Counted from the first letter of the stretch, positions 1 through 407 are shown. The stretch is 407 bases of DNA from Escherichia coli (GCF_003334335.1 NZ_QOWQ01000197.1), one strand, 5' to 3'. Notes: a model not told the origin generated them from the letters alone. Numbers and translations are program-made.

Positions 1-407
1 ATCATCACGCCAATGGAGCCGATACGGGATGTCTGGGTAACCAGCCGTCGGGAGCAGGCCGACGCCAGCAGCATGGCTGCAGAACAGGCCGTGTCATTGC
101 ACAGTGCCCAGACCGGCTTCTGCTGACTAAGTCGGTAAATCATGTCAGCACAGTCAAACGCACCGGCGGCCTGCCCGCCCGGACTGTCAATGTCCAGCAG
201 TACACCCCGCACCTGGCTATCCGCCATTGCCTGCTGAAGACAGGCGACAATGCCGTCATAGCCTGTCATTCCGGAAAATGGCCGCATACCCCCCAGCCGG
301 TGCACCAGCGTGCCTGTCACCGGCAGTACAGCAATACCGTTCACCACCCGGTAAACACGGGCCGGTCGTTTACCTCCGGCCATGTACTCGTCCGTTTCAG
401 CCAGCAT
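1..407 (-). CDS. Phage prohead (head maturation) protease, peptidase S49 family, lambda gpC-like; partial CDS (C-terminal part continues beyond position 1; N-terminus may lie beyond position 407)
   Basis: The minus-strand frame with codons at 407-405 down to 5-3 is open for all 135 codons. The translation contains the blocks RVYRVVNGIAVLPVTGTLV, RPFSGMTGYDGIVA, GVLLDIDSPGG-AGAFDCAD, KPVWALCND-CSAA-LLASA-SRRLVTQT and IGSIGVMM. From memory these align closely with lambda gpC (…SYQVMNGIAVLPVSGTLV…QPYSGMTGYNGIIA…GILLDMDTPGGMVAGAFDCAD…KPVWALANDMNCSAGQLLASAASRRLVTQTARTGSIGVMM…). Codon choice is typical of enterobacterial genes (CTG, CCG, GGC, GCC). The opposite strand shows only short interrupted ORFs. 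Confidence 0.9.
   Translation of the reverse strand, partial: MLAETDEYMAGGKRPARVYRVVNGIAVLPVTGTLVHRLGGMRPFSGMTGYDGIVACLQQAMADSQVRGVLLDIDSPGGQAAGAFDCADMIYRLSQQKPVWALCNDTACSAAMLLASACSRRLVTQTSRIGSIGVM
81..83 (-). other. Codon for the predicted nucleophilic serine of the S49 protease (Ser109 of the window translation, in the motif N-D-T-A-C-S-A-A)
   Basis: Plus-strand aga at 81-83 is TCT (Ser) on the minus strand. It sits in the block ALCNDTACSAAMLLAS, which aligns with the lambda gpC block ALANDMNCSAGQLLAS. As I recall, the Ser in that block (Ser166) is the proposed catalytic residue of gpC. The assignment rests on remembered homology, not on computation. Confidence 0.5.

Follow-up and report, generated by a model that had tools for sequence, protein, structure and literature searches.

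The 407-nt stretch of DNA analysed here, which we refer to as the window, is an internal segment of a phage-21-type head maturation protease/scaffold gene. Its minus strand (1..407) reads through as a single, uninterrupted frame of 135 codons, corresponding to codons 54-188 of a gene of 501 codons, and the part of the protein that it encodes is the N-terminal half of an S49 peptidase domain. Megablast located the window at 100% identity in Escherichia phage PhiR5_1 (PV340545.1, 30080-30486), a record submitted as a complete phage genome that lists E. coli C as host, and at the same identity in E. coli prophages; phage 21 is 98% identical to it at the DNA level. Prophages matching the window are found in 1,934 of 5,426 complete E. 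coli genomes. A search of Rfam with the window gave no match. The features that lie outside the window were read from public records that hold the exact 407-nt sequence, L001 (PhiR5_1, PV340545.1) and L003 (E. coli STEC17-183), in both of which it occupies locus positions 5001-5407; window position p is L001 position 5408-p.

The full gene (L001 4842..6347, on the minus strand of the window; 1,506 nt, 501 codons) has a GTG start 159 nt beyond window position 407, and in L001 and L003 alike the frame continues past window position 1 for 313 further codons, with 940 nt to the stop codon. The surrounding genes follow the lambda head-gene order of terminase, head-tail joining protein W, portal, protease/scaffold, head decoration, major capsid protein and FI, and the order portal, protease/scaffold, decoration, major capsid is seen in the annotated records PV340545.1, NZ_CP075652.1 and NC_001416.1. 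In the annotated regions, the protease gene is not separated from the genes for decoration and capsid proteins by any scaffold gene of its own. The initial annotation had proposed a homologue of lambda gene C whose minus-strand frame runs past position 1 of the window and might contain a nested scaffold gene further on, and had named two findings that would speak against the nested gene: a reading frame that ends soon after the window, and a stand-alone scaffold gene downstream. Neither is found at this locus, where 313 codons (940 nt) precede the stop codon and the next genes are those of the head decoration and major capsid proteins.

The gene carries several labels. In PhiR5_1 the 501-codon gene is labelled 'protease C / scaffolding domain Nu3', the RefSeq label is 'S49 family peptidase', and the whole 501-aa CDS is also called 'head-tail preconnector protein Nu3' in PhiR5_1. 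Four short ORFs of 30-39 aa lie in other frames of the window or antisense to the gene (13-126 and 142-237 on the plus strand, 5-97 and 140-259 on the minus strand); they have no support, and we regard them as ORFs that arise by chance where coding sequence is GC-rich. Related prophage and viral contigs have length variants of the gene: L044 and L046 (439 aa), L048 (577 aa), L082 (446 aa) and L051, which has a stop after 99 codons. These look like frameshifts, truncations or mosaics, and the internal Shine-Dalgarno (SD) sequence and ATG described below are still there in the variants that reach that far, which are all except L051.

The protease domain and its catalytic residues

The full 501-aa protein is 53% identical to lambda gpC (BLASTP, E=2e-140) and matches Pfam Peptidase_S49 (PF01343, E=2.6e-35) over residues 146-293, so the proposed relationship to lambda gene C is borne out, in an open frame with the predicted orientation. 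PHROG 53, 'head maturation protease', is matched with E=4e-72 by the window translation and with E=2e-224 in a test of the full gene. Among cellular proteases, Bacillus subtilis SppA (PDB 3rst) is matched by phmmer with E=3.5e-16. The scores against the NCBIfam SppA models lie under the curated cut-offs (for example 111.9 against 155.45 bits), and we therefore regard the protein as a member of the S49 family and not as an SppA equivalog. A sequence search of the PDB gave matches to SppA for the protease part only, and no relative for the scaffold part.

The codon of the predicted catalytic serine, Ser162, is at 81..83 (minus strand) in the window. This residue corresponds to lambda gpC Ser166 in the BLASTP alignment and is paired by phmmer with the serine of the 'MAASGG' motif of 3rst, which we take to be the nucleophile Ser147 of B. 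subtilis SppA. To follow it through the family we used a comparison set of 80 IMG/VR loci together with lambda, phage 21 and L001, which yielded 69 distinct complete proteins of 57-100% identity; Ser162 is invariant in all 69. Outside the window, the 3rst alignment puts Tyr209 of the phage protease ('IYSGAH') opposite the lysine of the SppA 'IKSGAH' motif, presumably the general base Lys199, and an invariant His213-Lys214 pair is found near Tyr209, five residues on. The gpC-type S49 proteases may have a catalytic base unlike that of SppA.

At its end the window holds nothing but protease. Positions 1..120 (minus strand) are protease codons 149-188, with the translation WALCNDTACSAAMLLASACSRRLVTQTSRIGSIGVM, and the frame runs off the window at position 1 toward the nested start. 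The initial annotation had attached to this interval its expectation of a possible nested scaffold gene beyond the window. It was right in that the frame leads to such a start, 338 nt beyond position 1, and the interval itself consists of protease codons alone. We also considered a nested start inside the window and rejected it: the in-frame ATG and GTG codons among codons 54-188 pair with the 3' end of 16S rRNA at -4.8 kcal/mol at best, and the in-frame candidates in 1-120 (codons 165, 187 and 188) at -1.7 kcal/mol each. That the window alone would contain no nested element had been stated from the outset, and holds.

The internal start signal and its conservation

The sequence beyond window position 1 contains an SD sequence, AGGAGG, at L001 5735-5740 (minus strand of the window, 328-333 nt beyond window position 1), and an ATG that begins at L001 5745, 338 bases past window position 1. 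L001 5735-5747 reads AGGAGGcactATG (AGGAGG-cact-ATG). As 5745-4842 = 903 = 3 x 301, the ATG is in frame and is codon 302, 60% into the 501-codon gene, and caGGAGGcactATG is found at codon 302 in both exact-window records, L001 and L003. The predicted nested scaffold CDS (L001 5745..6347, minus strand of the window) uses the stop codon of the long gene and would encode a product of 200 aa, 20.8 kDa and pI 4.7. An internal start with an SD sequence had been anticipated about two-thirds of the way into the gene, and the AGGAGG-ATG at codon 302 of 501 answers closely to that expectation; the same start is annotated in phage 21 and kept in 69 of 69 homologues, as set out below.

When every in-frame ATG, GTG and TTG of the gene is compared for pairing with the 16S rRNA 3' end, codon 302 has the strongest interaction (-10.3 kcal/mol) and the runner-up reaches -7.4. 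In phage 21 and in lambda, too, the strongest pairing of all in-frame starts is that of this codon (-12.0) and of codon 309 (-10.8), respectively. With 4 nt between SD and ATG, the spacer is near the lower limit of what is usual. Real initiation sites are typically low in structure, and the 50-nt mRNA stretch centred on the internal ATG is less folded than 99.8% of the stretches of the gene (in L001, -6.4 kcal/mol against a mean of -14.0). The start regions of four other homologues, lambda codon 309 among them, are less folded than 93-99.8% of stretches.

The start of the long form is of a different kind. It is a GTG with its SD sequence (GAGGAG) 10 nt upstream, and its first 11 nt (L001 4842-4852, 149-159 nt beyond window position 407) overlap the last codons of the portal gene. 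The location of the GTG within the portal end suggests translational coupling to the portal and weak independent initiation, and the combination of GTG and a 10-nt SD spacing fits a lower output than that of the internal ATG with AGGAGG. These features fit a protease start that is coupled and low in output, next to a scaffold start that is independent and strong, and from them we infer the direction of the product ratio. A sigma-70 scan of the gene for an internal promoter that could serve the short product gave one site, past the gene end, and no more sites than shuffled sequences; internal translation initiation is therefore the simpler model.

Each of the 69 distinct homologues has an ATG where the S49 domain meets the C-terminal region, as a rule with a strong SD sequence in front of it. 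The pairing energy at this codon has a median of -10.3 kcal/mol and a range of -12.0 to -5.8; homologue L080, at the weakest value (-5.8), has only a weak SD. Ranked within its own gene, the boundary ATG lies at a median quantile of 0.6% of in-frame positions, and of the remaining in-frame start codons in the same 69 genes only 0.2% attain -10.3. The homologues are related to one another, so that 69 of 69 amounts to about 20 distinct nucleotide contexts and not to 69 independent events. The residues immediately before the methionine differ (THDTGGT, SNVRGGT, SKTKGGN, VTQENT, VTKENA, VTQEET). In some homologues the purine motif is GGA-GGN, encoding Gly-Gly, and in others it is (A/C)AG-GAG, encoding Lys/Gln-Glu, with a different spacer. 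A purine motif that is kept while residues and spacing change suggests that selection acts on the RNA and not on the encoded residues. In principle, a conserved methionine and Gly-Gly between two domains could also be of use to the protein itself, perhaps in a linker or as a site of cleavage.

Phage 21, lambda and the scaffold module

Phage 21 provides the closest annotated counterpart. In M81255.1 ('Bacteriophage 21 head gene operon') gene 5 is at 4572..6077 and gene 6 is nested within it in frame at 5475..6077; the sequence at the gene 6 start is agAGGAGGcactATG, and the record marks a ribosome binding site at 5464..5468 and three 'Tri boxes' in gene 6, of 'function unknown'. An independent record, the complete phage 21 genome OL657228.1, labels this nested CDS 'scaffolding protein' and marks its ribosome binding site. 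Genes 5 and 6 belong to the same gene family as the window gene and are essentially the same allele, with 91% DNA identity over the nested region and 94% identity over the whole protein (gp5). Both have a 501-aa long product, a 200-aa nested product, AGGAGGcactATG at codon 302 and three 'Tri box' modules. They differ in a few residues just before the start (THDTGGT in PhiR5_1, SNVRGGT in phage 21), in the third module and in the tail. The nested CDS is annotated in phage 21, whereas it is unannotated in the records with the exact window allele.

Two further observations were made on these phage 21 records. The portal gene, gene 4 (L002 2990-4582, M81255.1), has the product name 'head-tail preconnector gp5', as does gene 5, which looks like a labelling slip. 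On the minus strand of OL657228.1, two matches to a 'CII binding site' pattern, ttgynnnnnnttgy, occur at 5314-5327 and 5548-5561 (L085 1251-1264 and 1485-1498); they are antisense within the scaffold gene, the first just past the nested ATG, and are pattern matches only.

The scaffold domain might act only as part of the 501-aa fusion, the internal ATG being a mere methionine codon. An arrangement of this kind is described for P2 gpO, one polypeptide with a protease in its N-terminal part and a scaffold domain in its C-terminal part (Chang et al. 2009, as cited in PMC8508860). The window gene is unlike that of P2 in having a strong, conserved internal SD and ATG at the domain boundary. P2 gpO is made as a single protein and is not known to have a nested gene. 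Public annotation agrees with a fusion on its face, as a single CDS is all that is given in 17 of 19 phage records and in 40 of 40 sampled RefSeq E. coli records. However, gene callers do not report nested in-frame genes, and the missing annotation is not evidence of absence. A mere methionine codon would also have to own the best SD of the gene and the local minimum of mRNA structure, with an SD motif that is kept across homologues though the residues it encodes change; moreover, the curators of phage 21 annotate the nested gene, and the homologous Nu3 of lambda is the standard example of a scaffold that is produced separately (Shaw & Murialdo 1980, as cited in PMC8508860). We consider a fusion-only scaffold unlikely.

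The scaffold part of the gene is related to Nu3, as a comparison of the C-terminal region, recommended when the window was first described, established. In BLASTP, the 200-aa product aligns three times over with a single segment of lambda Nu3 (E=9e-17, 2e-12 and 6e-09), and PHROG 8399, 'head scaffolding protein', matches three stretches of it (E=8.5e-37). An alignment of nested products defines a module of about 45 residues with the consensus D(Q/R)IMAL.EAKGRE.LA..LA..PGMTVEQAK.LLAAAP. Lambda has a single copy and L050 has two; the window gene and phage 21 have three each, and a 538-aa type has four, in every case behind the conserved internal start. Tandem Repeats Finder detected no DNA tandem repeats in the scaffold region, where the modules are seen at the protein level only, and no NCBIfam model matches the nested product. 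An AlphaFold model made from the nested-product alignment has short helices in each module (pLDDT 72-83) and low-confidence linkers and C-terminal tail (mean pLDDT 67.5, pTM 0.28). The model depicts a product that would be helical and flexible, as expected of a scaffold. It is conceivable, though rather doubtful, that the copy number of the module is an evolvable setting of procapsid assembly, acting for example through the valency or reach of the scaffold.

Lambda C and the window gene have in common the S49 domain (53% identity overall), the gene order, an AGGAGG-N4-ATG at the domain boundary, a homologous scaffold module and a C-terminus shared by the long and short products. In lambda, a single module follows a linker of about 45 aa rich in Ser, Thr, Ala and acidic residues, whereas the window gene has three modules and no such linker; the far C-terminal tails of the two cannot be aligned. 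The start that matches is not the one annotated. The nested start of the window gene aligns exactly with AGGAGGgcgaATG at lambda 5342, and the annotated nu3 start at 5132 is left unaligned. Lambda 5342, gpC codon 309, reads tcAGGAGGgcgaATG (lambda 5332-5344, L004 2833-2845) and is the best SD-preceded start of gene C (-10.8 kcal/mol). The initial annotation had described Nu3 as starting in the 3' third of gene C; this fits 5342, which is 70% into the gene, rather than the annotated 5132, which is 54% in.

RefSeq and GenBank give lambda nu3 as 5132..5737 (start at L004 2633), from gpC codon 239, with a product of 201 aa, and a start at the equivalent position, about codon 235 of the window gene, is one way in which the nested scaffold gene could begin elsewhere than at codon 302. 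The lambda 5132 ATG falls within the S49 domain; in a ranking of the in-frame starts of gene C by SD sequence it does not reach the first eight, and the only SD-like sequence upstream of it is GGGAG, 15 nt away. Opposite lambda Met239 the window gene has Ile, and 62 of 69 homologues have Ile or Val. The other candidate, GTG318/ATG319 after CAGGAG, is second in SD energy (-7.4). Met319 belongs to the R(I/V)M motif repeated in the scaffold modules, and this motif explains its conservation through the protein. The phage 21 curators, for their part, chose codon 302. A start at either of these other places is thus very unlikely, and we take codon 302 as the probable start of the nested gene.

We suggest that the reference start of lambda nu3 may be wrong, or that lambda has two starts. 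Initiation at 5342 would give a product of 131 aa and 13,394 Da (residues 309-439), and gpNu3 is reportedly described as a 13.4-kDa protein in papers from the Catalano laboratory. The PHROG 8399 profile has 131 positions, and the 131-aa sequence of lambda has been called as a protein on 165 public contigs, the 201-aa form on 6. Conservation of the internal start implies that lambda Nu3 would be the 131-aa (13.4-kDa) product from 5342 and not the annotated protein of 201 aa.

A model for two products and its use in annotation

We conclude that the gene very probably makes two proteins from one frame, a 501-aa protease-scaffold and a 200-aa scaffold that starts at codon 302. Translation from the GTG overlapping the portal end would give the 501-aa protein, an SppA-like S49 protease (about residues 60-295) followed by the C-terminal scaffold domain. 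Translation from the internal AGGAGG-cact-ATG would give only the scaffold domain, a protein of 200 aa equivalent to Nu3 of lambda and gp6 of phage 21. As they have a common C-terminus, both products would then assemble together with the major capsid protein in the procapsid; most of the scaffold would be the short form, and the long form would carry in a few copies of the protease. Before DNA packaging, the protease would digest the scaffold and itself. Use of the internal start, the amounts of the products, their co-assembly and the proteolysis are proposed here from what is known of lambda and phage 21. By the same analogy (Shaw & Murialdo 1980; Medina et al. 2010/2011, as cited), the short protein would be the abundant scaffold, the long protein would enter the procapsid by way of the shared domain, and the protease would remove the scaffold and trim itself.

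The design resembles, in its logic only, that of UL26/UL26.5 of herpesviruses, where a long protease-scaffold and an abundant short scaffold are likewise read in a common frame and dock to the capsid through the same C-terminus. In UL26/UL26.5 the long and short proteins share frame and C-terminus. Nevertheless the herpesvirus protease has the unrelated S21 assemblin fold with a Ser-His-His arrangement, and the short form comes from its own internal promoter and transcript in a eukaryotic host.

It is most improbable that the source copy is a defective prophage whose gene is truncated or frameshifted downstream and makes no nested product: such damage is present in related loci (L051 with its stop after 99 codons, L044 and L046 at 439 aa, L048 at 577 aa), but both exact-window records have an intact 501-codon gene with the internal start, and one of them, PhiR5_1, is a phage genome submitted as complete.

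The nested protease/scaffold arrangement is already known, as the phage 21 annotation (M81255) and the classic lambda C/Nu3 design make clear; it has been annotated in phage 21 for decades, and biologically there is nothing new in it. Its treatment by gene callers is a different matter. The initial annotation had warned that a nested gene of this kind is easily missed, and the records justify the warning. None of the 40 E. coli RefSeq records sampled across the ranking has the nested CDS, each of them giving only 'S49 family peptidase', and it is lacking in 17 of the 19 phage records covering at least 80% of a 648-nt query over the nested region; the two that annotate it are both phage 21. With only 'S49 family peptidase' annotated, protein catalogues lack the scaffolding protein of a prophage head module that is very common. 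The comparison also suggests that the lambda reference places nu3 (5132) off the conserved start (5342). The practical value of the present analysis is in annotation: relatives of the gene occur in about 1,900 of 5,426 complete E. coli genomes, and the nested start can be found by a simple rule, an ATG with a purine-rich SD sequence right after the S49 domain.
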